Shown: positions 7,677 to 48,307 of the stretch, piece by piece | Position numbering within the stretch: the first letter of the stretch is position 1 | How the letters are laid out: each line of letters begins with the position of its first letter | From: a virus | Lineage: Duplodnaviria; Caudoviricetes | DNA: 64,000 nt | Strand: one strand, 5' to 3' | Virus record (IMG/VR): IMGVR_UViG_3300028591_000085 | Location: 1-64,000 of that record | Made by a program: the position numbers and the translations under genes | Notes under the pieces: generated by a model | Told to the model about the DNA's origin: nothing | Databases searched by the model: none | What the model saw: only the letters and a program-made list of their open reading frames with translations

Positions 7677-8102
7677 ATGAAATTTACAAATTTAACTGGA
7701 ACCCCGATAACAATAGTTGATAACAAATCTAAGCATATGAAAACACACCAGATTAAAGCGTCTGATAAATTTATAATAATTGAAGATGGTGAATATGTAC
7801 CTGTAACAAGGATAGATTCACTCCCGATATCTCGTTTGAAAAACTACAATGAAGTAACTTTGTCAGTTGTTCGTGATGATGGTAAAATAGATATTAATAT
7901 TTTACCTTCTCAATTAAATAGTATTTTTCCAAAGATAGAAGATCATTTCTATATAGTCAGATATGAATGCATCAGATTTTTTGTTAATCGAAACGATGTA
8001 TTATTTCCATCTGAACCTTATAGATATTTAAACACTTCTAGAGGAAAACTTGAACTTAGTGATGGGAAGTATCTCAGTTTATGCCAGAATCCGTTCTGCT
8101 AA
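7677..8102 (+). CDS. Divergent NLTPH-family (Crn4-like) protein
   Basis: NLTGTPITI...FYIV...RNDVLFP aligns with 42713..43066 (NLTPHMVTI...IYVV...REDVFIP). Confidence 0.5.
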   Translation: MKFTNLTGTPITIVDNKSKHMKTHQIKASDKFIIIEDGEYVPVTRIDSLPISRLKNYNEVTLSVVRDDGKIDINILPSQLNSIFPKIEDHFYIVRYECIRFFVNRNDVLFPSEPYRYLNTSRGKLELSDGKYLSLCQNPFC

Positions 8103-8149
8103 ATAAAATACCTCGTAGCAAATATATTTGCTACGAGGTATTTTATTTT
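8101..8149. terminator. Bidirectional terminator
   Basis: Perfect ~23-bp inverted repeat aaataaaatacctcgtagcaaat/atttgctacgaggtattttattt between convergent genes. Confidence 0.9.
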
Positions 8150-9043
8150 TTATTTAGTATTTATTATTACAGTAAAAAGTGCTGTAATGAAATTACTACC
8201 AGCAATGCCATTTTCAACATATCCAAGTTTATTTAGAAATTCATTGACTGCTTTCTGTGTACCAGAACCGAACGAAGGGGTATTGTCAACAGTTGCAGTT
8301 ATTATTTTTTTCTGTTTTGCTAACATAAGAAGTTTCTTAAGAGCTAAAACACCATTATCCGAATCTTTATATTTATATCCAGTACTATCTAATGTAGCTT
8401 TAACTGGGGCTTTATTAGAAGACTTAGGATAACCATTCAGACCTTGCTTCATTATAACTGAAGGATAGTCAATGCATGCTTTATTTAAATCAACATCACC
8501 ATATACACCAGGAATATTACCTTTGAATGAATACTGATGAATTCCACATTCCATTGTAGGTGAACCGACTGTATTAGCACACCATAATGCATAACGCTTT
8601 AATATCTGAGCTGAAACTTTTTGCGTAAGGAAGTCATCGTAACTATAAAGCATTGCAAAATATCCAGCCTTTTCAAGTATATTACAAAATGTTGTAATGA
8701 TTCTTCCTATTATATCCTTATTAAGACCTACTTGACATTCGTCCTCAATATCGAATGCAACAGGCATATTAAATTTCTTTCCTTTAATAATCTCAAGGAA
8801 TAACTTAGCTTCGAGTTCAGCATCAGCTACAGTTGTTGCATATGAATACCAATAGGCACCAATGCATAAACCTGCTGCAGATGCATTCTTGTAGTGAGTC
8901 TCAAAACACTTGTCCTTTTGAGATTTATACTTACCATAACCGGCTCTTATCATAACAAAGTTAATACCACTGTTCTTAACTTTTGTCATGTTAACATTAG
9001 GGTTATGCTCTGAAACGTCGATACCTTTATAATCCCAACTCAT
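8150..9043 (-). CDS. Endolysin: GH25 muramidase plus C-terminal peptidoglycan-binding domain
   Basis: GIDVSEHN, FVMIRAGYG, GAYWYSY, FDIED, HQYS, DVDLN; C-terminal FGSGTQKAV...NGIAG. Confidence 0.93.
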   Translation of the reverse strand: MSWDYKGIDVSEHNPNVNMTKVKNSGINFVMIRAGYGKYKSQKDKCFETHYKNASAAGLCIGAYWYSYATTVADAELEAKLFLEIIKGKKFNMPVAFDIEDECQVGLNKDIIGRIITTFCNILEKAGYFAMLYSYDDFLTQKVSAQILKRYALWCANTVGSPTMECGIHQYSFKGNIPGVYGDVDLNKACIDYPSVIMKQGLNGYPKSSNKAPVKATLDSTGYKYKDSDNGVLALKKLLMLAKQKKIITATVDNTPSFGSGTQKAVNEFLNKLGYVENGIAGSNFITALFTVIINTK

Positions 9044-9225
9044 TTCTTTCCCTCCATTTTCTTATAATGATTAGATGCAGCTTTAATCATATCTTGATGG
9101 GTGTCAATAATTCGTTGTATAGTAGTTTGTGAAAATCTATATATATTTGATAACTCTTCGATGTTAGCACCAAATATATAAGACTTAATTATTTGACGAA
9201 TCGTCTGATCAGTCATTATAATCAC
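9040..9225 (-). CDS. Small HTH protein coupled to the endolysin
   Basis: GANIEELSNIYRFSQTTIQRII HTH pattern; ATGA overlap with the lysin start. Confidence 0.65.
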   Translation of the reverse strand: MIIMTDQTIRQIIKSYIFGANIEELSNIYRFSQTTIQRIIDTHQDMIKAASNHYKKMEGKK

Positions 9226-9241
9226 TCCTTTCAGGATTTTT

Positions 9242-9254
9242 TTATGAGATTGTT
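9242..9254 (-). promoter_or_regulatory. Late-type promoter AACA-N6-TAA
   Basis: AACAatctcaTAA. Confidence 0.6.
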
Positions 9255-9277
9255 TTAGAGTAACAATACTGTATTAT

Positions 9278-9544
9278 TTACTTAAATTTTAATCTAATAT
9301 ATACTTTAGATTGTGTTTCATAGGTATCAATTATAGTACTTTTTACAGTAAAAGGTACATCCAATTCTTCATAAATAAGATCATTAATTGCTGTTAAATT
9401 TGAACTCTGAACTACTAATTCATTAGAAGATTTATCAGCACTAACTTCATAATCATGTGATACTAAAAGATCGGTAATCATTTTCATAATCTTATCAGTA
9501 TACTTTTTACATTCTGTAAATGTAGTAACCATAGGATTAACCAT
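9278..9544 (-). CDS. Hypothetical protein
   Basis: 88-aa ORF, AGAAAGGAGTG upstream. Confidence 0.7.
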   Translation of the reverse strand: MVNPMVTTFTECKKYTDKIMKMITDLLVSHDYEVSADKSSNELVVQSSNLTAINDLIYEELDVPFTVKSTIIDTYETQSKVYIRLKFK

Positions 9545-9603
9545 TTTAAATGTTACTCACTCCTTTCTAATATTATTAAGAATAGTTGATTGAAATATAA
9601 AAT

Positions 9604-9616
9604 GACATATAGATAA
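9604..9616 (+). promoter_or_regulatory. Late-type promoter GACA-N6-TAA
   Basis: GACAtatagaTAA. Confidence 0.5.
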
Positions 9617-9642
9617 TCATAAGAATCCTAAAATAAGGAGGA

Positions 9643-10899
9643 ATGTATGTGGATAACATAGTTTTTTTAGAATCGTGTTTAGAATTATATGAAGCTAAGT
9701 CACAACTAGAAACAGTCATTTCTATTATAGATACGTTTTATGAAAGTTCTGATCAAAATACTAAAAAAGGATTTAGTAAACTAAAAGAAGCTTTTAATAG
9801 ATATACATCTAAAGTTAAAGACCTGTGCGAGCTATATTCATCAAAAAGACGAGTTAAAAAAAATCTTAAGATTATGAAAAGAGCTATTAAAGATAATCCT
9901 GAATTAGCAAAAGAAAAAGTAACATATCGTACATTTGCTGATTTTACAGATGATTTAGATTATGACGTGAAACTCAGTAAAAACTTAGCATATAGAATTG
10001 ATAATTATGATAAAAAATGGATGACAAATCTAATTGATTCATACTATAAAAATATGGATGATTCTAATAAATTTTTAAAGAAAATCACCATAAAAGAATC
10101 CATAGAATATGCTGAAGGAATTATATCTGATATTGATAAGGCAATTGAAACTCGAAAAAAATTGGTTGAGAATGTAGCTAACAATATCGATGCTGAGAGT
10201 ACTACACCTGAACAAGTTAACATGTTTAAAAATTTAATTACTACAATTTATAAATCAATACAAACTCGAATTTTCATAATGATGTATAATATAGAATCAT
10301 TATTTGTTTCAACTGTCGATAAAATTAGAAATGATATAGACGCTGAAGCAAATAAAATGGTTGTTAAAAAAATTACTAAATCGTATAATACTATACAAAA
10401 AAATTCTAAAAAAATTGACACTGTTGAAATTTTTGGAACTATTATAGAACTGTATGAAACTGATAAATATATAGAATCCGAATTCGTTACTGGTGCTGAT
10501 CATCCTAGAGTATATTTTGATAAAGACTTTAAGAAACTATCTCCAGCTTATAAAAAAGCAATACTATATCATGAATATGGTCATGTTATAAATGGGCATC
10601 TAGGTACAGTACATTATCGCGATGAATATAAACTAGATAAAAAGATATCTCGTAGAGTTAAAAAATATTTAAAGCAAGTAAATTCTAAAAAAGAAAATCT
10701 AGCTTCAGACGATTTATTAATTTATTTATTGATTGAATTAGAAGCAGATGAATTCTCTGCTAACTTCGTTGGTAAGAATGTAATAAAAAAATCACTAGAG
10801 CATGACTATATTGATTTAGTAAATAAAGCAAAAGATTTACCTGAAGATGATAAAATAAATACACTATTTGTTGGTAAATTAAGAGCTTCTATGTTATAA
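9643..10899 (+). CDS. Putative virion protein with C-terminal HExxH zinc metallopeptidase
   Basis: AILYHEYGHV plus downstream ELEADEFSA (M48/ImmA-like third ligand); N-terminus FLES/LYEA/FYES then KKGFSKLKEAF. Confidence 0.75.
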   Translation: MYVDNIVFLESCLELYEAKSQLETVISIIDTFYESSDQNTKKGFSKLKEAFNRYTSKVKDLCELYSSKRRVKKNLKIMKRAIKDNPELAKEKVTYRTFADFTDDLDYDVKLSKNLAYRIDNYDKKWMTNLIDSYYKNMDDSNKFLKKITIKESIEYAEGIISDIDKAIETRKKLVENVANNIDAESTTPEQVNMFKNLITTIYKSIQTRIFIMMYNIESLFVSTVDKIRNDIDAEANKMVVKKITKSYNTIQKNSKKIDTVEIFGTIIELYETDKYIESEFVTGADHPRVYFDKDFKKLSPAYKKAILYHEYGHVINGHLGTVHYRDEYKLDKKISRRVKKYLKQVNSKKENLASDDLLIYLLIELEADEFSANFVGKNVIKKSLEHDYIDLVNKAKDLPEDDKINTLFVGKLRASML

Positions 10900-11230: not shown

Positions 11231-11257
11231 TAATCGTTAGTAAAAATACCTATGAAA

Positions 11258-11270
11258 AACATAAGTATAA
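11258..11270 (+). promoter_or_regulatory. Late-type promoter AACA-N6-TAA
   Basis: AACAtaagtaTAA. Confidence 0.65.
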
Positions 11271-11300
11271 TGCATAAAAAATGAAAGGAGTGAACTCCAA

Positions 11301-12626
11301 ATGGCGGAACCTATATCAATTGGAAATATTGGTTTAATAAAAAATAGTTCATCTACTAAAAATAATTTACCAATGATTAGTAATGTCGTAAATAATATAA
11401 ATAATGCTGTTAGTTCATATAACCAGTCAAAATCTAAAAACAATTCATCCAGTGGTTCAAATAATGGTTCTAGTGAATATGCGTTTGAACCATCCTCTAT
11501 AGACGGTGGTTCTGATAAGGAAAAAGACAAAGCTCAAAAAACACCTCAGTCTGAAATGTCTATATCAAATAATGCTACTGAATCAAGCGATTTAGTAAAA
11601 CAAATGTTAAATCCTGATACTATAAAATCAAATGAATCAGATTTAAAAAAATTAAGACGAACCCTTAGTATATATGATTCTCCAAATAAAAGTGCTGCAT
11701 GGTTATGGGAAAAGTCAACTGAATACTATAATAGATTCAAAGTTGCTACATTAGATGACGCTTTTACTAGAGGGTTTGGACATGTATTTTTTGTCAAACC
11801 TATGTGTAATATAAGTGAGAGTAATGATGGCGGTAGTCCATTAACTGTAACAAACCCAATGTTTCAGTATGCAAATACAAGTTCACCAGCAACTATAAAA
11901 GAATTAACATATTCTGGAAATGGAACTGGGACTGACGGAAATGATTCACCATCATTTATGTTATCTCTATCAAATAAGGTTACTAATTTTTCTTTAAATG
12001 ATGAATTCATTAATGAAGGTGTTACCGGTAAAACATATACGGGTACCCAGATAGCTTATGGTAAAGATATATCTGAATCACGAAGCGTTAATAATTTATC
12101 AATAACATTTAAAGATGATAAATATCTTCATGTGTACCAATTACATAGATTATGGCTTGAATATATATCAGGTGTATATAGAGGTACTATGACTCCTACA
12201 AAAAATACTATAACTGAAAAAATATTAGATTATGCAGGTGCCGTTTATTATATCATCACAGGTAATGATGGTGAGACTATTTTATATTGGGAAAAATATT
12301 ACGGTATTTTCCCAACTAATATATCAACAGACTCATTGAACTGGGATATTGAAAAACTTATTTCAAATCCAACGTTTACAGTGACATATCGATATTCAAT
12401 CAGAAACTCATACGATCCTGCAATTTTAAGTGAGTTTAATATGAATGGTGGTTCAAATAAGTCAAATTCCGCAGAACCCATATTTGATAAAGAACTCGGA
12501 CATGTTGGACCGTCGTGGGTAGGTATGCCATATATAGAAGAACAGGTTGCTCAAACATCTACTTCAAACGAAACTACTAAAAGTTATAAGTTGAAGTTTG
12601 CTAAGAAGAGCTTAGAAGTTTATTAA
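11301..12626 (+). CDS. Tail tube-fold baseplate protein (T4 gp19/gp54-like tube initiator)
   Basis: SITFKDD...LWLEYI...DYAGAVY...YYGIFPTNISTDSLNW...FTVTYRY pattern; adjacent to the wedge gene. Confidence 0.6.
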   Translation: MAEPISIGNIGLIKNSSSTKNNLPMISNVVNNINNAVSSYNQSKSKNNSSSGSNNGSSEYAFEPSSIDGGSDKEKDKAQKTPQSEMSISNNATESSDLVKQMLNPDTIKSNESDLKKLRRTLSIYDSPNKSAAWLWEKSTEYYNRFKVATLDDAFTRGFGHVFFVKPMCNISESNDGGSPLTVTNPMFQYANTSSPATIKELTYSGNGTGTDGNDSPSFMLSLSNKVTNFSLNDEFINEGVTGKTYTGTQIAYGKDISESRSVNNLSITFKDDKYLHVYQLHRLWLEYISGVYRGTMTPTKNTITEKILDYAGAVYYIITGNDGETILYWEKYYGIFPTNISTDSLNWDIEKLISNPTFTVTYRYSIRNSYDPAILSEFNMNGGSNKSNSAEPIFDKELGHVGPSWVGMPYIEEQVAQTSTSNETTKSYKLKFAKKSLEVY

Positions 12627-42459: not shown

Positions 42460-42501
42460 CTTCATCAACCCTTTCATTACAATATTGTGTAGTGTATAAT
42501 A

Positions 42502-42511
42502 AAATAATATA
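42502..42511 (-). promoter_or_regulatory. Early-type promoter TATATTATTT
   Basis: Exact motif. Confidence 0.55.
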
Positions 42512-42580
42512 ATAAAGTATATAACTTCTACACAATATAATATTATATAATAAAAACCGTAAAGTCGGTTTTTTCGATGA

Positions 42581-42590
42581 TATACTATTT
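42581..42590 (+). promoter_or_regulatory. Early-type promoter TATACTATTT
   Basis: One mismatch to consensus, precedes structured leader copy 1. Confidence 0.55.
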
Positions 42591-42606
42591 ATGTGCCATA
42601 ATGATA

Positions 42607-42687
42607 TTGTCAATAATATCATTACCAACTTACGCATTCCGATTGATGGAAAGTAAGACGTAAGGTTTCGTGTAATGATTGAGACAA
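42607..42687 (+). ncRNA. Structured 5' leader RNA, copy 1 (unclassified)
   Basis: Nested stems ttgtc/gacaa, atcattac/gtaatgat, cttacg/cgtaag, ttcc/ggaa; covaries with copy 2. Confidence 0.75.
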
Positions 42688-42712
42688 AATAAATTTTAAA
42701 GGAGGAATCATT

Positions 42713-43066
42713 ATGACAAAAATCGTAAACCTCACTCCCCACATGGTAACCATCATGGGCGAGGGCAACAAGTTTGCCCTCAATATCGAGCCATCTGGCA
42801 AGTTGGCTCGTGTATCCGCTACGACCGTAGTCGTAGGTGAGATAGAGGTGAGGACCGACATACGGACGACGTTTAAGGTACCCATAACGACAACCCGTTA
42901 CGGGGAGGTTGAGGGACTCCCCGATCCCGCGCCTGATACTATCTACGTAGTATCCTCCCTTGTCGCGGGACGTGTCCCCGACAGGGAGGATGTTTTCATC
43001 CCGAACGAGTCCGTTCGGGATGACGAGGGGAGGATCATCGGATGCCGTTCCCTCGGCCACATCTGA
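42713..43066 (+). CDS. NLTPH-family protein, probable Crn4-like cyclic oligoadenylate ring nuclease (candidate anti-type III CRISPR)
   Basis: NLTPH...PSGKLARV...YGEVEGLP...IYVVSSLVA...REDVFIP...VRDDEGRIIGCRSL; RBS AAAGGAGG; ~55% GC. Crn4 label is from recollection of the family motif. Confidence 0.65.
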   Translation: MTKIVNLTPHMVTIMGEGNKFALNIEPSGKLARVSATTVVVGEIEVRTDIRTTFKVPITTTRYGEVEGLPDPAPDTIYVVSSLVAGRVPDREDVFIPNESVRDDEGRIIGCRSLGHI

Positions 43067-43075
43067 TGACCTAAA

Positions 43076-43410
43076 CCACATGAAAGGAGGTGATTAACAT
43101 GTGGAATTAATTAGCACCCATCCCCAAAGGGTGAACGTGGTTTCTATACTGACACGTAAAAAAGTATAGCGTTGATAGTTTCGTAAAACTATAGATATCC
43201 GTCATACTTTGTATGGTCCAGAGCTCGCTAGTGGGAGTAACTGGTGAAAAGGAAGAAAGAAGTAATACTATGCGAGTTAGTATTATGAGCGCTCACTAGA
43301 AATGCCGAACATCTTGGGGTGGAAGATACGTATAAGAATCAGAAATGTACGGCGCATTTCTGTTACATAACTAAAAATAAGTTGAAGTTCTCGCATCAAC
43401 TTATTTTTTT
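43076..43410 (+). ncRNA. Highly structured ~335-nt non-coding RNA (unclassified), ending in a terminator
   Basis: About eight hairpins plus five loop-mediated pairings; no long ORF. Confidence 0.7.
43373..43410 (+). terminator. Intrinsic terminator
   Basis: aaaaataagttga / tcaacttattttttt. Confidence 0.85.
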
Positions 43411-43464
43411 ATAATTTTTTATATAATCAAATTTACTCATTCGTATTTTGTTTTTTTGTATATA

Positions 43465-43474
43465 TATATTATTT
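43465..43474 (+). promoter_or_regulatory. Early-type promoter TATATTATTT
   Basis: Exact motif, precedes structured leader copy 2. Confidence 0.6.
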
Positions 43475-43494
43475 ATTTAGTCATATTGATAATA

Positions 43495-43570
43495 TACCAA
43501 TAGAACTATACCAACTTATGCATTCCTAATAGAGGATATTAGTCATAAGGTGTCGAGTATAGTTATGGTA
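43495..43570 (+). ncRNA. Structured 5' leader RNA, copy 2 (unclassified)
   Basis: tacca/tggta, aactatac/gtatagtt, cttatg/cataag, tcct/agga. Confidence 0.75.
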
Positions 43571-43594
43571 AATAAAAAATAAGGAGGTATCATT

Positions 43595-43903
43595 ATGACT
43601 GATAAGAACATATTCGAAATAGCCTCAAACGATGCTGAGGCTAACCAACTCATGGAGAAGGTTTTTTATGCATCAAAAACCTTCAACGACACTCTGTTCT
43701 CGATCAAATATTTGATCGAGAACAGATACAATAATAAAGCTCCTGGATCAATGATTGAGCTGCTCTATCAGCTCAAAGGTATGGCAGAAAAGTTAATAGT
43801 ATCTGCCGAAATCATTTCCGACTTCGGTCATATGCTGGCCGAAGTCAAGGCTTTGAGCGAAAATGATTCAGTCGAAGCTGAGGAAGCTAAGACTGAGGGC
43901 TAA
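43595..43903 (+). CDS. Early hypothetical protein (helical, acidic)
   Basis: 102 aa, RBS AAGGAGG, GC above background. Confidence 0.8.
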   Translation: MTDKNIFEIASNDAEANQLMEKVFYASKTFNDTLFSIKYLIENRYNNKAPGSMIELLYQLKGMAEKLIVSAEIISDFGHMLAEVKALSENDSVEAEEAKTEG

Positions 43904-43909
43904 AAGATA

Positions 43910-43955
43910 AGGACTCCCCGAACAATCTGGTGTTCGTTCGGGGAGTCTTTTTTTT
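43910..43955 (+). terminator. Intrinsic terminator
   Basis: gactccccgaac / gttcggggagtc followed by a T-run. Confidence 0.9.
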
Positions 43956-46900
43956 TAATCTTTTTTGTCATAAATTTCTTTTAAGCTTCTTTTTAATTCT
44001 ATAATGCATTTATTACCAAGTGCTGTTAACAATATACTCGGTGTCATACGTTTTAAAATACTATTAGAAGCTATTATTGTACTAACTTCTTCTTCGGGTC
44101 TATAACTACTCCAGGGTTCATATCCTGCAGGAATTATTTCACCAATGGTATTCTTAAGAGCAGTAAAATTGGCTATCTTGGAGCCAACTTCTAGAGGTTC
44201 AGAGTGTTTTACATAGAACTCTATAAGTACTCCACCCTCTTCAATTTTTTCTCCTTTAATAACACCAAATTTATTGGGTTCAATTTTTTTACTTGTTTCA
44301 TTAACAAGTAAACCACATTTAACTATACTACCAGCTGAGTCCGGATCATACTTTTCTAAGAACTTTTTCTTAGAATTTATAGTACTATAATAATTACTTA
44401 CAATCTTTCTTAATGAAGGTGAAAGCTCATCAAGTTCAACTGTAGAATATATCTTAATTTCTTCAATTACTCCTGAATATTTGGAATGAATGTCATTCCT
44501 ACTCCCTTCAAGAATAGTAGATTGTTCCTCTTGACTAAGATTTGCAAGTAAAGTATTCAATGAATTATCTTCAAATGAAGTATCAAATTGAATCAAGCTG
44601 TCTCCTACTTTTATTTCTTGACCTTTTTTAACCATATATTCAACGTTAGCATTTTTACCAATTACAACACTCTTTAAGAAACACATCTCTGTTGCAGCTT
44701 CATCTGATAATTTTTCAGTTATCATTGTAGCATCTTGATAAGTGTTATAAGTAGACATGATTGCAACTTTAGTAAGTGTTCCCATGTTCATTCTGCAATT
44801 ATTAAACTTATCATTGGTAAAGAAGTCTTTATGATAAGCTAATACAGAATCTTTCTTAAACTTATCTCCAACTTTTAATGTAGTAATTAATTGGTTACTC
44901 AAGAAGAAACCACCGCCACCATTTTTAACAATAGTATGACCTAGGTTAACAGCTTGACATTTCCCAGAGTTATATTTAACTATCATTATATCATCTTTAT
45001 AATCTACTACAATACCATCTTCAGCAGCATTGACAGCAAAGTCTGATGATAATTGGAAACGACAAACTTCTTCCATACCATTAGATATTAATACAGGGGA
45101 TGATTTCTTTACAGGAATAGTATGTTTAGATTGTTTTAATGCGTGTCCAAGACGAGTAGGGTCATCATTAGTAGCACCTAAAGGTATAGTTAATTCAGCA
45201 GGTGAGAATACATCTACATCGTGTAACGTATCCAATTTTTCATTTTTTGAATCAACGTAATTTAAATCAACATATCCACGTAACGACGTTATTGAAGGAT
45301 TAAACGTAAGAGTCTTGCTTACACCACAAGAACCGTCAGGAGATGTTGACGGTGATATAACACCTATCGAGGTCTTATCAAAAGTTCTTTTAGGAACTGT
45401 ATAAGATTCATCAAGGTTAGCACCTCTAAATCCTTTACTAGAAATACCACGGAACATTTCCATTTCAAGTGTTGGATTAAGTGTGGAATAATCTTCAACA
45501 GTTTTTAATGCAATAAGTTCTTTTATTACACAATCCTGAGGTACTGAATATGCTTTTTTACCGTTACTATTTCTATATAAAATATATTTCTTAGCAAGAC
45601 GCTCATAAAGAATAGCAGGTATTATTTCATTACATCTAATTCTTGATAGTCCCTGATTTATTTCAGGAGTATATTGAGAATCAGATAATAATGATACAGC
45701 GTATATGATTATCTCTATTAAGTCATAAGGAATATTAATATCTTTACATACTTCCACAGTTATGGGGTCCATCATAAATTCATACACGTTAAGTAATGCA
45801 TTTGCAATTGCAGCTTTACCCCAAACTTTTATTAAATATGGCATATATGGTTCTTTAGTATCCATTTCAGAGATTTTATAATTCTGAGTATCTAAGAATC
45901 TGTATCCATTTATTAATAAATCAATACCAACTGTAGATTCGTATACAAGATAGCAATCTGCAAATCTTAAATAGCTTTCATTAGGTTTAAGCTCAGGAAA
46001 CTTATCGTCAAGTCTATATTTAACTTTTCCTTTTTTAAGTAATGATGATAAACCTTCCCAAAATCCCAATAATAAACCAACAGCAACATACTGTTCAAGA
46101 ACTTTTGCTCTGGTATACATAAGTCTCTTAGGAGCTCTAGTAGATTCATATACATGTTTTTCTTCATCAGATAAAGCATTTAACATAATATAAACTATGG
46201 TATCATTATTATCAGTTTTTTGAGTTTCCTCATTTATATAAATAGGAGAACCGCTTTTATCTAAACCAATAAAGATATATCCTTTCTTCATGGGTATATC
46301 TCTTTTTTTAGCAAATTCTATTGCTTCATTCTGGTTAAATAAAATTTCAGTCTTTCCTTTTTTAAACTTTATCGCAATCTTAGAAAGTTCATCATACTCT
46401 ACTGTAGTAATAAACTTATTGTTTATTGAGATACAGTTTCCATATGTAAAGTATTTCTTTATTTCATCTGACTTTTTCAATACAGTTTTAAGTCTTTCTA
46501 TAGATGATAAAGATTTAGTTCCAACTCGTTCAATAAACATCTTATTGTAGTTAGTTGTTAACTGAACTATATTTGAACTAGTCTTCACAACTGGATATAA
46601 TAAGTTTTGTTTTTTGATAACTTTTCTATTGCCACCTATATAAATAAATTTATCTTCTATAAATTTAGGTATATCAACCTTAATTGTATGACGTTTTCTA
46701 TTAGTATCTTCAAGATAAATAGTATATGTATCTTTATAATTTAACTCATCAGACGAATCTTGAATTTTTATATCTCTAACAAACATGGGAAGAGACTTAT
46801 TATTTAATGAAAGAATTGCATCAGTTATATCTTTCGGCATTAATTTTTCATTATATTCCTTATCAAAATTATCAAATTTCAGTTGCGTCACATTTTTATT

Positions 46901-48307
46901 ACTTGTTCTAACAGATGCCGATACATCGTGAGTAGGTATTTGGATATGAGAAGCTTGAATTTTCTCAATTTCTTTGATTGTCATTCCTTTTATTTTAAGA
47001 TCAGCTTGCGCTTTCCTAAGTTCTTCATCTCTTGCTGTTGATGCAGTCTTCTTAGGAACAACGGGTGAAATCACTTCATCATAAATTGTATTTAATAATT
47101 CTTTATCAGAATCTATGTCATTTTCCAATTTAGTCTGTACTGCTGTTTTTATATTATCGGATGTTAAACTCTTAGTATATGCATCCGGAGCAATCTTCTC
47201 AACTTCATTTCTTATCGCAACAGCTTTTGCTCTAATTGCATTATAAACTTTATCACTACCAGTTATAACTTTTCTATCACCAAGAGTAGATTTTGAAACA
47301 GTGGGTCTTTCAACCTTATTTGACGATGGTTTATATGTTGCTTTAGATTCATCTTGTTTAACTTCATCTAAAGATGTTATAATAGTATTATTTTTAGTAT
47401 TATTAATACTATTATTCAATTCACCAATAGTATTTTCAACAGCTTCATCCTTCTTAATCTGCTCTTCATTAACTGCGTCATTAAAGAATGATACATTTGA
47501 ATATAGTCTATTCATTTCTCTACGGAAAATTGTATATGTTTTCTTATCACAATTATATGGATTGAACTTTAAGCTCTTTTTATCAGTAAACATATAGAAA
47601 TCAATATTTAATGCTGTAATCATATCAGGATATTTAAGTAATGTATAGTATAGCATAAAGACAGGATTTGTCATATTCTCTTTCAAATTTTTATACATAG
47701 GATAATTTGAAACATCAATTAAAACAAATCTATTTTGATATGCTGTCAGATTAGGAGCAAATAATATACTTCTTAAATAATCCCAGTACATTTTAATCTT
47801 TCTAACTGGTGAAATTTTTTCACACAGTGTTAAAAAGATATTCATATGCTTTGATAAATCATAGTATAGATTCCTATCATCTTTACCATCAATAGCAAGT
47901 TTTATATAAGGATGAATTTTATTTTGTGATTTTGACAATACCTTTTTATATAATTCTTTACGTAAATCAAGCTCACGTATTCTAAATGTTTTTCCATACA
48001 ATTTACCACTATACATCGGGTTATAATAGTAATAGAAATATTTATTTGCATTGACAAAGTTTATGGTATTTGTCATTAAATTAAGAGATTCATCTGTATT
48101 ATTGGTATATAAAAAACAAAGGTTTCCTCTATTCCCATTAGTACCTTTAGGTAACGTAATTTTTTTATTTATTAATTTTAAATATGGTACATTATCAGGG
48201 TAAACTGCTTCCATCATTACATCATTTTCGCTATCAATATCTGTAACAACTTCAGTCATGAGTTCTTCTTCCTGTTTACCATTTATAACATCGAAAAATA
48301 AACTCAA
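43955..48307 (-). CDS. Phage multisubunit RNA polymerase beta-like subunit (probably virion RNAP)
   Basis: SPSTSPDGSCG (cf. CPIETPEGPNIG), NDDPTRLGHALKQSKHTIP (cf. HDDANRALMGSNMQRQAVP), YNTYQDA (cf. GYNFED), GSKIANFTALKNT (cf. GDKMAGRHGNKGV), KRM (cf. SRM). Confidence 0.9.
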   Translation of the reverse strand: MSLFFDVINGKQEEELMTEVVTDIDSENDVMMEAVYPDNVPYLKLINKKITLPKGTNGNRGNLCFLYTNNTDESLNLMTNTINFVNANKYFYYYYNPMYSGKLYGKTFRIRELDLRKELYKKVLSKSQNKIHPYIKLAIDGKDDRNLYYDLSKHMNIFLTLCEKISPVRKIKMYWDYLRSILFAPNLTAYQNRFVLIDVSNYPMYKNLKENMTNPVFMLYYTLLKYPDMITALNIDFYMFTDKKSLKFNPYNCDKKTYTIFRREMNRLYSNVSFFNDAVNEEQIKKDEAVENTIGELNNSINNTKNNTIITSLDEVKQDESKATYKPSSNKVERPTVSKSTLGDRKVITGSDKVYNAIRAKAVAIRNEVEKIAPDAYTKSLTSDNIKTAVQTKLENDIDSDKELLNTIYDEVISPVVPKKTASTARDEELRKAQADLKIKGMTIKEIEKIQASHIQIPTHDVSASVRTSNKNVTQLKFDNFDKEYNEKLMPKDITDAILSLNNKSLPMFVRDIKIQDSSDELNYKDTYTIYLEDTNRKRHTIKVDIPKFIEDKFIYIGGNRKVIKKQNLLYPVVKTSSNIVQLTTNYNKMFIERVGTKSLSSIERLKTVLKKSDEIKKYFTYGNCISINNKFITTVEYDELSKIAIKFKKGKTEILFNQNEAIEFAKKRDIPMKKGYIFIGLDKSGSPIYINEETQKTDNNDTIVYIMLNALSDEEKHVYESTRAPKRLMYTRAKVLEQYVAVGLLLGFWEGLSSLLKKGKVKYRLDDKFPELKPNESYLRFADCYLVYESTVGIDLLINGYRFLDTQNYKISEMDTKEPYMPYLIKVWGKAAIANALLNVYEFMMDPITVEVCKDINIPYDLIEIIIYAVSLLSDSQYTPEINQGLSRIRCNEIIPAILYERLAKKYILYRNSNGKKAYSVPQDCVIKELIALKTVEDYSTLNPTLEMEMFRGISSKGFRGANLDESYTVPKRTFDKTSIGVISPSTSPDGSCGVSKTLTFNPSITSLRGYVDLNYVDSKNEKLDTLHDVDVFSPAELTIPLGATNDDPTRLGHALKQSKHTIPVKKSSPVLISNGMEEVCRFQLSSDFAVNAAEDGIVVDYKDDIMIVKYNSGKCQAVNLGHTIVKNGGGGFFLSNQLITTLKVGDKFKKDSVLAYHKDFFTNDKFNNCRMNMGTLTKVAIMSTYNTYQDATMITEKLSDEAATEMCFLKSVVIGKNANVEYMVKKGQEIKVGDSLIQFDTSFEDNSLNTLLANLSQEEQSTILEGSRNDIHSKYSGVIEEIKIYSTVELDELSPSLRKIVSNYYSTINSKKKFLEKYDPDSAGSIVKCGLLVNETSKKIEPNKFGVIKGEKIEEGGVLIEFYVKHSEPLEVGSKIANFTALKNTIGEIIPAGYEPWSSYRPEEEVSTIIASNSILKRMTPSILLTALGNKCIIELKRSLKEIYDKKD

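Follow-up and report, generated by a model that had tools for sequence, protein, structure and literature searches.

A hairpin that occurs twice in the 64,000-nt stretch of phage DNA analysed here (the window) is identified by comparison with its relatives as a leader RNA that acts in cis at the 5' end of early messages from accessory-gene cassettes and that belongs to a single lineage of rumen jumbo phages. The comparison shows that the outer stems of the hairpin vary freely in sequence yet stay paired, and that no part of it except an internal loop (L1) and the pairs on either side is conserved in both this long form and a short form found in related phages. We tentatively propose, at a little under an even chance, that the element combines a 5'-protective stem with a putative protein-binding tag that coordinates early accessory genes.

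The virus record is 203 kb long and ~85% complete, and the window is its first 64 kb. This stretch carries the gene for a multisubunit RNA polymerase beta subunit (43955-48307), whose closest cultured relatives belong to AR9/PBS1-like jumbo phages at ~30% identity. Both hairpins sit in an accessory island between the beta gene and a conserved 186-aa gene, two genes that are directly adjacent in relatives where the island is absent (Table 1). The closest complete relative, G004, has 113 of 170 proteins in common with this phage at a median identity of ~51%, and Shine-Dalgarno sequences together with the relatives indicate that the host is probably Gram-positive. A Tubulin/FtsZ-family gene lies at genome 74219-75364 (+).

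Table 1. Coordinates of the two leader copies and associated features (window positions unless a genome or contig is named)
Feature	Position	Strand	Remarks
Copy 1 early promoter	42579..42595	+	AR9-type AT-rich 10-mer, 6-nt spacer, predicted +1 G 42595
Copy 1 PX 5' strand	42597..42605	+	pairs with spacer and start codon, 42707-42715
Copy 1 leader hairpin	42607..42687	+	RNAfold and comparative pairing
Copy 1 P0	42607-11/42683-87	+	
Copy 1 P1	42618-25/42672-79	+	
Copy 1 closing pair	C42626-G42670	+	
Copy 1 internal loop L1	42627-28/42665-69	+	
Copy 1 P2	42629-34/42659-64, then C42635-G42657	+	
Copy 1 P3	42637-41/42647-51	+	5-nt loop
Copy 1 Shine-Dalgarno and sequestered AUG	42698..42715	+	Shine-Dalgarno 42698-42705, AUG 42713-15
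Crn4-family cOA ring nuclease	42713..43066	+	117 aa, behind copy 1
Copy 2 early promoter	43463..43479	+	AR9-type layout, predicted +1 A 43479
Copy 2 PX 5' strand	43479..43491	+	12 bp from +1, pairs with 43588-43600 including AUG
Copy 2 leader hairpin	43495..43570	+	RNAfold and comparative pairing
Copy 2 P0	43495-99/43566-70	+	
Copy 2 P1	43504-11/43557-64	+	
Copy 2 closing pair	C43512-G43555	+	
Copy 2 internal loop L1	43513-14/43550-54	+	
Copy 2 P2	43515-20/43544-49	+	
Copy 2 P3	43524-27/43533-36	+	5-nt loop
Copy 2 Shine-Dalgarno and sequestered AUG	43581..43597	+	Shine-Dalgarno open, 0.99 unpaired
Accessory ORF	43595..43903	+	102 aa, behind copy 2
Terminator-like hairpin and U run	43912..43956	+	closes cassette, convergent with RNA polymerase beta gene
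Motif-free AUG-pairing leaders	window 61948 (+); genome 171246, 171913 (+), 200928 (-)		
Second-domain sites	genome 174.5k (+), 127.1k (-), 173.9k (+), 83.8k (-); L070:4460-4560; L016:9915-10003		

The first-pass annotation of this DNA had described a duplicated leader; the repetition is real, but the genome holds eleven copies rather than two, ten of them clear and one divergent, as judged by blastn, a profile HMM and a covariance model. Plain blastn alone recovers six additional copies in the genome (E 5e-17 to 5e-5), and the HMM finds ten at E<=4e-10 while its best match in a reversed-genome control has an E of 4.3. Every copy is on the sense strand, 82-162 nt upstream of the start codon of an unrelated accessory gene, and is preceded by an early promoter at a distance from +1 that varies between 16 and 38 nt. 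The combination of core and promoter occurs 8 times in the phage genome and 12 times in G004, against 0-1 in simulated genomes. Related contigs from the rumen contain 20 further matches at 72-96% nucleotide identity, and a metagenome scan contributed 12 stretches that are biased to the consensus because the scan was based on a sequence pattern. Weak HMM matches at genome 100.75k, 144.7k and 60.9k were discarded as coding sequence or stemless. Two early leaders of the same genome, at 173909 (+) and 83839 (-), may represent a third variant; both have a long 5' stem, but where the loop would be there are only paired bases and one bulged C.

Both window copies lie where they had first been placed, with the shared core as described; P0, P1 and the C-G versus U-A change in P2 are likewise confirmed, and RNAfold gives the same fold for both. 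Single-copy folding is only modestly better than that of shuffled sequences (z -1.3 for copy 1 and -2.0 for copy 2), and the case therefore rests on comparison. Across 21 copies 96.4% of core cells are paired, a level that none of 500 shuffles matches and that falls to 33-56% in slid controls, and two-sided changes are found in 7 of the 12 core pairs, counts that do not represent independent events since the copies are related. Covariation in more homologues, the test set beforehand, is thus present. The arms of P1 pair at -7.2 kcal/mol with their own partners and at -2.8 with those of other copies (0 of 10000 permutations), and an additional invariant C-G pair lengthens P2. The annotation had claimed compensatory changes in every stem: pairing is indeed kept, but P0 and P1 have undergone wholesale replacement, not single compensatory changes.

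With respect to strand, P2 contains five G-U and no A-C combinations, which favours the sense strand, while folding energy does not favour it (12 of 30). This indifference of the folding energy, and the fact that the hairpin always adjoins an early promoter, would fit a DNA element, such as an operator or a part of the virion RNA polymerase promoter, in which pairing is a by-product of dyad symmetry. We find that idea scarcely credible given the irregular, bulged pairing, the G-U combinations without A-C in P2, the variable spacing to +1, and a long-range covarying helix with the start codon (below).

The internal loop had been given as CAA opposite GTKTCGW. Its conservation is borne out, but the C of CAA pairs with the G of TCG and the W is bulged or absent, leaving a 2x5 loop in which AA faces GYNUC (30 long and short copies). 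None of these 30 copies departs from the second A, the U or the C-G pair above the loop, and the loop-closing pair covaries, being C-G in 23 and U-A in 7. Identity among nine paralogues is 86% in the core but only 38-41% in the flanking arms, which can still pair, and this places the loop itself under sequence-level selection. The short form, recognised by reading the early leaders of G004, consists of a long stem from +1, the same loop, and then 4 bp closed by a 5-nt loop; the upper hairpin is missing and hence dispensable. In the long form, by comparison, the long stem below the loop is followed above it by 6 bp and an irregular extension. Nine short forms are present in G004, four in G025, two in G024 and one in G003, and one more stands ahead of a Crn4 gene in L016, another 206-kb phage. 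A mixed MAFFT alignment of long and short forms was misaligned, and a structure-anchored alignment was used instead. Some copies also carry, immediately before the ribosome-binding site, a second, pseudoknot-like leader domain with covarying stems, for which Rfam holds no match; its occurrence both in this phage and in the short-form phages supports their common origin.

Searches beyond these phages indicate that the element is probably confined to a narrow group of gut jumbo phages. Long-form patterns have no match in 185,579 prokaryote genomes and no new match in viral contigs, and relaxed loop patterns in viral contigs return only known copies or matches lacking the stem or the promoter. 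Four bacterial matches to the short pattern, about the number expected by chance, were rejected for want of flanking stems and promoters. The core is unmatched by blastn in cultured phages, the long-form model has no match among 23 related virus records, and both covariance models, with up to 150 candidates scored per genome, find nothing in 19 distant relatives (G005-G023) or in PBS1, LPJP1, SA1, phiR1-37 and JD-Fnp1. A weak PBS1 match (21.9 bits) covers a Shine-Dalgarno sequence and GTG start, lacks the invariant U and was set aside.

A check against Rfam had been asked for, and at the gathering threshold Rfam 15 yields 0 matches in the window; the long and short forms give only sub-threshold chance matches and fall in no riboswitch, ribozyme, leader or CRISPR-repeat family. 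The element is new to Rfam, and it may be among the 10,000 candidate viral RNAs reported in PMC10690425. No terminator is called at the motif, and sigma-70-like sites are at chance level. The annotation also raised the prospect of a ribozyme, which could be a small self-cleaving RNA that matures the 5' end. Twister-type ribozymes likewise occur in multiple copies and have a conserved internal loop, but no Rfam ribozyme matches at E<=10, the short form has neither a conserved pseudoknot nor a second loop, and what is kept across lineages is a 2x5 loop without a conserved tertiary partner. Together with RNA contigs that cross the loop intact, a weaker argument, this leaves self-cleavage unsupported and with a very slim chance.

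The early promoters proposed at first sight hold up, in that upstream of every copy there is an AT-rich 10-mer, six bases and then a purine, the layout of early promoters in the published description of phage AR9 (PMC5312081). The first-pass structure was incomplete, as it overlooked a covarying helix (PX) in which the spacer and start codon are paired with the first 11-13 nt of the transcript. Nine leaders, including both in the window, form this helix with their predicted first 10-13 bases (shuffle P <=0.002), while the Shine-Dalgarno sequence stays partly or fully open. PX of copy 1 has a predicted energy of -10.0 kcal/mol (shuffle P 0.002, pair probability 0.95) and covaries in the L003 and L006 copies through multi-base changes; in its fold the AUG is unpaired at <=0.09 and the Shine-Dalgarno sequence, partly open, at 0.51. 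PX of copy 2 reaches -12.6 kcal/mol (shuffle P <0.002), rank 1 of 19. The helix onto the AUG is absent from 10 of the 19 leaders, and in most other leaders the basal stem starts at or near the predicted +1. The predicted first bases are mostly paired, with 0-3 unpaired 5' bases in constrained folds and 0-1 in 12 of 18 leaders. The AUG is also paired with the 5' end in several short early leaders that lack the motif, the Shine-Dalgarno sequence lying in a loop, so the helix is a habit of the phage that need not be coupled to L1.

A competing hairpin in copy 1 (42599-42624, +) had been noted as well. It does exist, and forms in short folding intermediates, but it is restricted to copy-1-type leaders and one other copy. 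A switch operating through it is not supported, as the hairpin reaches significance in only 3 of 19 leaders, of which two are nearly identical, and accounts for 5% at equilibrium in copy 1.

The stretch is present in RNA libraries from the gut of sheep and cattle. Contigs of run X1 match it at 100% identity over 42606-42716, 42688-43321 and a divergent gene up to 42459, and there is no contig over the promoter gap 42460-42605 or over the polymerase gene, a weak indication, since assembled RNA contigs cannot show transcript ends and the +1 sites are predicted. A related phage in run X3 has a similar coverage pattern. The loop is crossed intact by 42606-42716 in X1 and by 43505-43600 in X3. The coverage is consistent with co-transcription of leader and gene, at least some of the RNA keeping an uncut loop. 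Contig depth in X1 (11 over the leader, 29 over the gene) is unusable as a measure of expression. Contig starts at 43513, immediately past the C of the loop, were considered as a cleavage site but reflect branching of the assembly, the 31-mer at 43512 being present twice in the genome and the next 31-mer once.

Intact contigs bear, again weakly, on a further explanation, namely that the hairpin is a processing site for host RNase III, or another host nuclease, as in the early RNAs of T7 and SP82. A nick at the asymmetric loop would lead to degradation of the upstream piece and free the start codon, and the strong Shine-Dalgarno sequence with its ribosome would then guard the new 5' end. This would account for the AUG helix in nine copies, and the long AU-rich stems of free sequence are suitable substrates. 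The RNase III sites of T7 and SP82 are internal to long transcripts, unlike the elements here, which begin at the predicted +1. Where those substrates have an internal loop they receive a single cut on the downstream strand (PMC1935012), a geometry matched by the longer loop strand, which lies downstream in the 30 copies. Against it, duplexes mapped for B. subtilis RNase III are 10-36 bp long and over 90% paired near the cut (PMC11780869), while the short form has only 4 bp above its loop. On balance we consider processing unlikely.

The genes behind the leader are diverse. Eleven unrelated genes follow the copies, and almost all are without a family; the exception, behind copy 1, is by homology a Crn4 ring nuclease, with phmmer matches to Crn4b (9r7b, E 7e-16) and Crn4a (9sma, E 2e-12). 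Its T8, H10 and R102 align with conserved Crn4 residues and are invariant in homologues, in agreement with the Thr, His and Arg named as conserved in this family (PMC12830947). The 102-aa ORF behind copy 2 has no significant Pfam or PHROG family. With an anti-CRISPR ring nuclease in the set of tagged genes, the orphan genes that follow other copies of the leader become candidates for host takeover or counter-defence. Elsewhere in the window (7677-8102, +), a 141-aa protein with faint Crn4 similarity at both ends (pairwise E 0.012) and without the catalytic His adjoins genes that by eye resemble thymidylate synthase and dihydrofolate reductase.

The presence of the leader ahead of Crn4 in two lineages, in the long form here and the short form in L016, the asymmetric conserved loop as a possible pocket, and the sequestered AUG in nine copies speak for another suggestion of the annotation, a small-molecule riboswitch (for cOA, a cyclic dinucleotide or an ion) of counter-defence genes. 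We regard it as very unlikely and the cOA or cyclic-dinucleotide version as unsupported: only about ten bases are conserved, no alternative fold is (the 5' hairpin being significant in so few leaders), no Rfam riboswitch matches, the eleven unrelated genes suggest no common ligand pathway, and the Crn4 genes of G005 and L017 lack the motif. There is correspondingly little likelihood that the loop responds to an immune signal of the host (cyclic oligoadenylate, for instance), by itself or via a host immune protein, and so frees the start codon; if it did, a counter-defence set including Crn4 would be switched on only upon host alarm, forming a phage riboswitch regulon. In L017, a 215-kb contig, the leaderless Crn4 gene stands two genes from an Apyc1 anti-Pycsar nuclease (8119-10330).

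Behind the Crn4 gene of the window there is a separate, strongly folded RNA (43075-43410, +; z -3.84) that is 95-97% conserved in L002, L004 and L013 and has no Rfam match. Its 5' end is a hairpin (43076-43110, +) with a very strong Shine-Dalgarno sequence in the loop, followed by a three-codon ORF. A size-fractionated RNA library covers only 43124-43350, within this RNA, a hint that it exists as a discrete small RNA.

The phages acquire and lose promoter, leader, ORF and terminator together. In L013 one more such cassette, the third, with an ORF of 72 aa, is inserted at the U run of the terminator behind the 102-aa gene (11250-11760), and relatives lack the island. Modular gain and loss of cassettes is also known for the PeSLs of T4-type phages (PMC2839356), and with the 5' end paired in nearly all copies it would suit a passive, PeSL-like role, in which the leader is a 5' stabiliser and a stretch of shared homology for cassette shuffling, and the loop merely interrupts the helix, for example to avoid RNase III, with no specific binder. 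Yet a structural interruption would not keep the same loop bases at ~51% median protein identity while neighbouring pairs change, and other leaders of this phage have plain 5' hairpins that lack the loop. We judge a purely passive role improbable.

Protein binding and stabilisation are the best remaining options among those first listed, and they are combined in the reading that we prefer. The loop bases are kept while neighbouring pairs change, for which pairing alone is insufficient, and something therefore probably reads the loop. In the proposed scheme the paired 5' end would shield the message from RppH/RNase J-type 5' decay; B. subtilis RppH requires at least two unpaired 5' bases (PMC3997798). 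L1 would be the recognition site for one RNA-binding protein, encoded by phage or host, and this putative protein would jointly adjust how stable all tagged messages are or how well they are translated, for instance by keeping the AUG helix in place or letting it go as infection proceeds from early to late. A search by co-occurrence for a trans-acting gene leaves 35 genes common to this phage and G004 and not found in the motif-negative G005, too many to single one out. An mRNA-export tag of a phage nucleus was also considered; AR9-like phages are not Chimalliviridae (PMC13282480), and chimallin has no match among the ten candidate proteins of the phage genome that were scanned. Post-transcriptional early control in jumbo phages with their own RNA polymerases is largely uncharted, and the comparison narrows the question to one unit, a 2x5 loop with about ten conserved bases. 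If a protein binds this loop, the two would form a new compact RNA-protein pair.

Examples of protein-bound RNA tags in phages are boxB of lambda nut and the MS2 operator, and with HK022 put they offer one comparison: the leader resembles them as a small structured RNA behind early promoters that is plausibly recognised by a protein, and differs in having no sequence match to them. Antitermination would have no obvious use here, since copy 2 is followed by just one gene and then a terminator. The RNase III hairpins of T7 (R1.1) and Bacillus phage SP82 (PMC1935012) resemble the leader in being multi-copy stems that lie ahead of ribosome-binding sites in phage early RNA and carry an asymmetric internal loop; the comparison is one of geometry, and the start at the predicted +1 and the 4 bp above the loop of the short form set the leader apart. 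PeSLs (PMC2839356, PMC4122927) share the arrangement of repeated early-promoter and stem-loop units flanking modular accessory ORFs, but their hairpins terminate beside host sigma-70 promoters, whereas the element here forms a 5' leader downstream of a promoter of AR9 type, lacks a U run and has an internal loop whose sequence is maintained. Phage AR9 itself, of the same phage group and promoter type, has long early UTRs that share a predicted motif whose function is left unexplained where it is presented (PMC5312081, Fig. S3). In 5'-terminal stem-loops that stabilise messages against RppH and RNase J (PMC3997798) the first transcribed bases are mostly paired, as predicted here, but such stem-loops need no conserved sequence, in contrast to the conserved loop of the leader. 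While it appears to be a full member of none of these classes, the leader resembles known phage early-leader elements.
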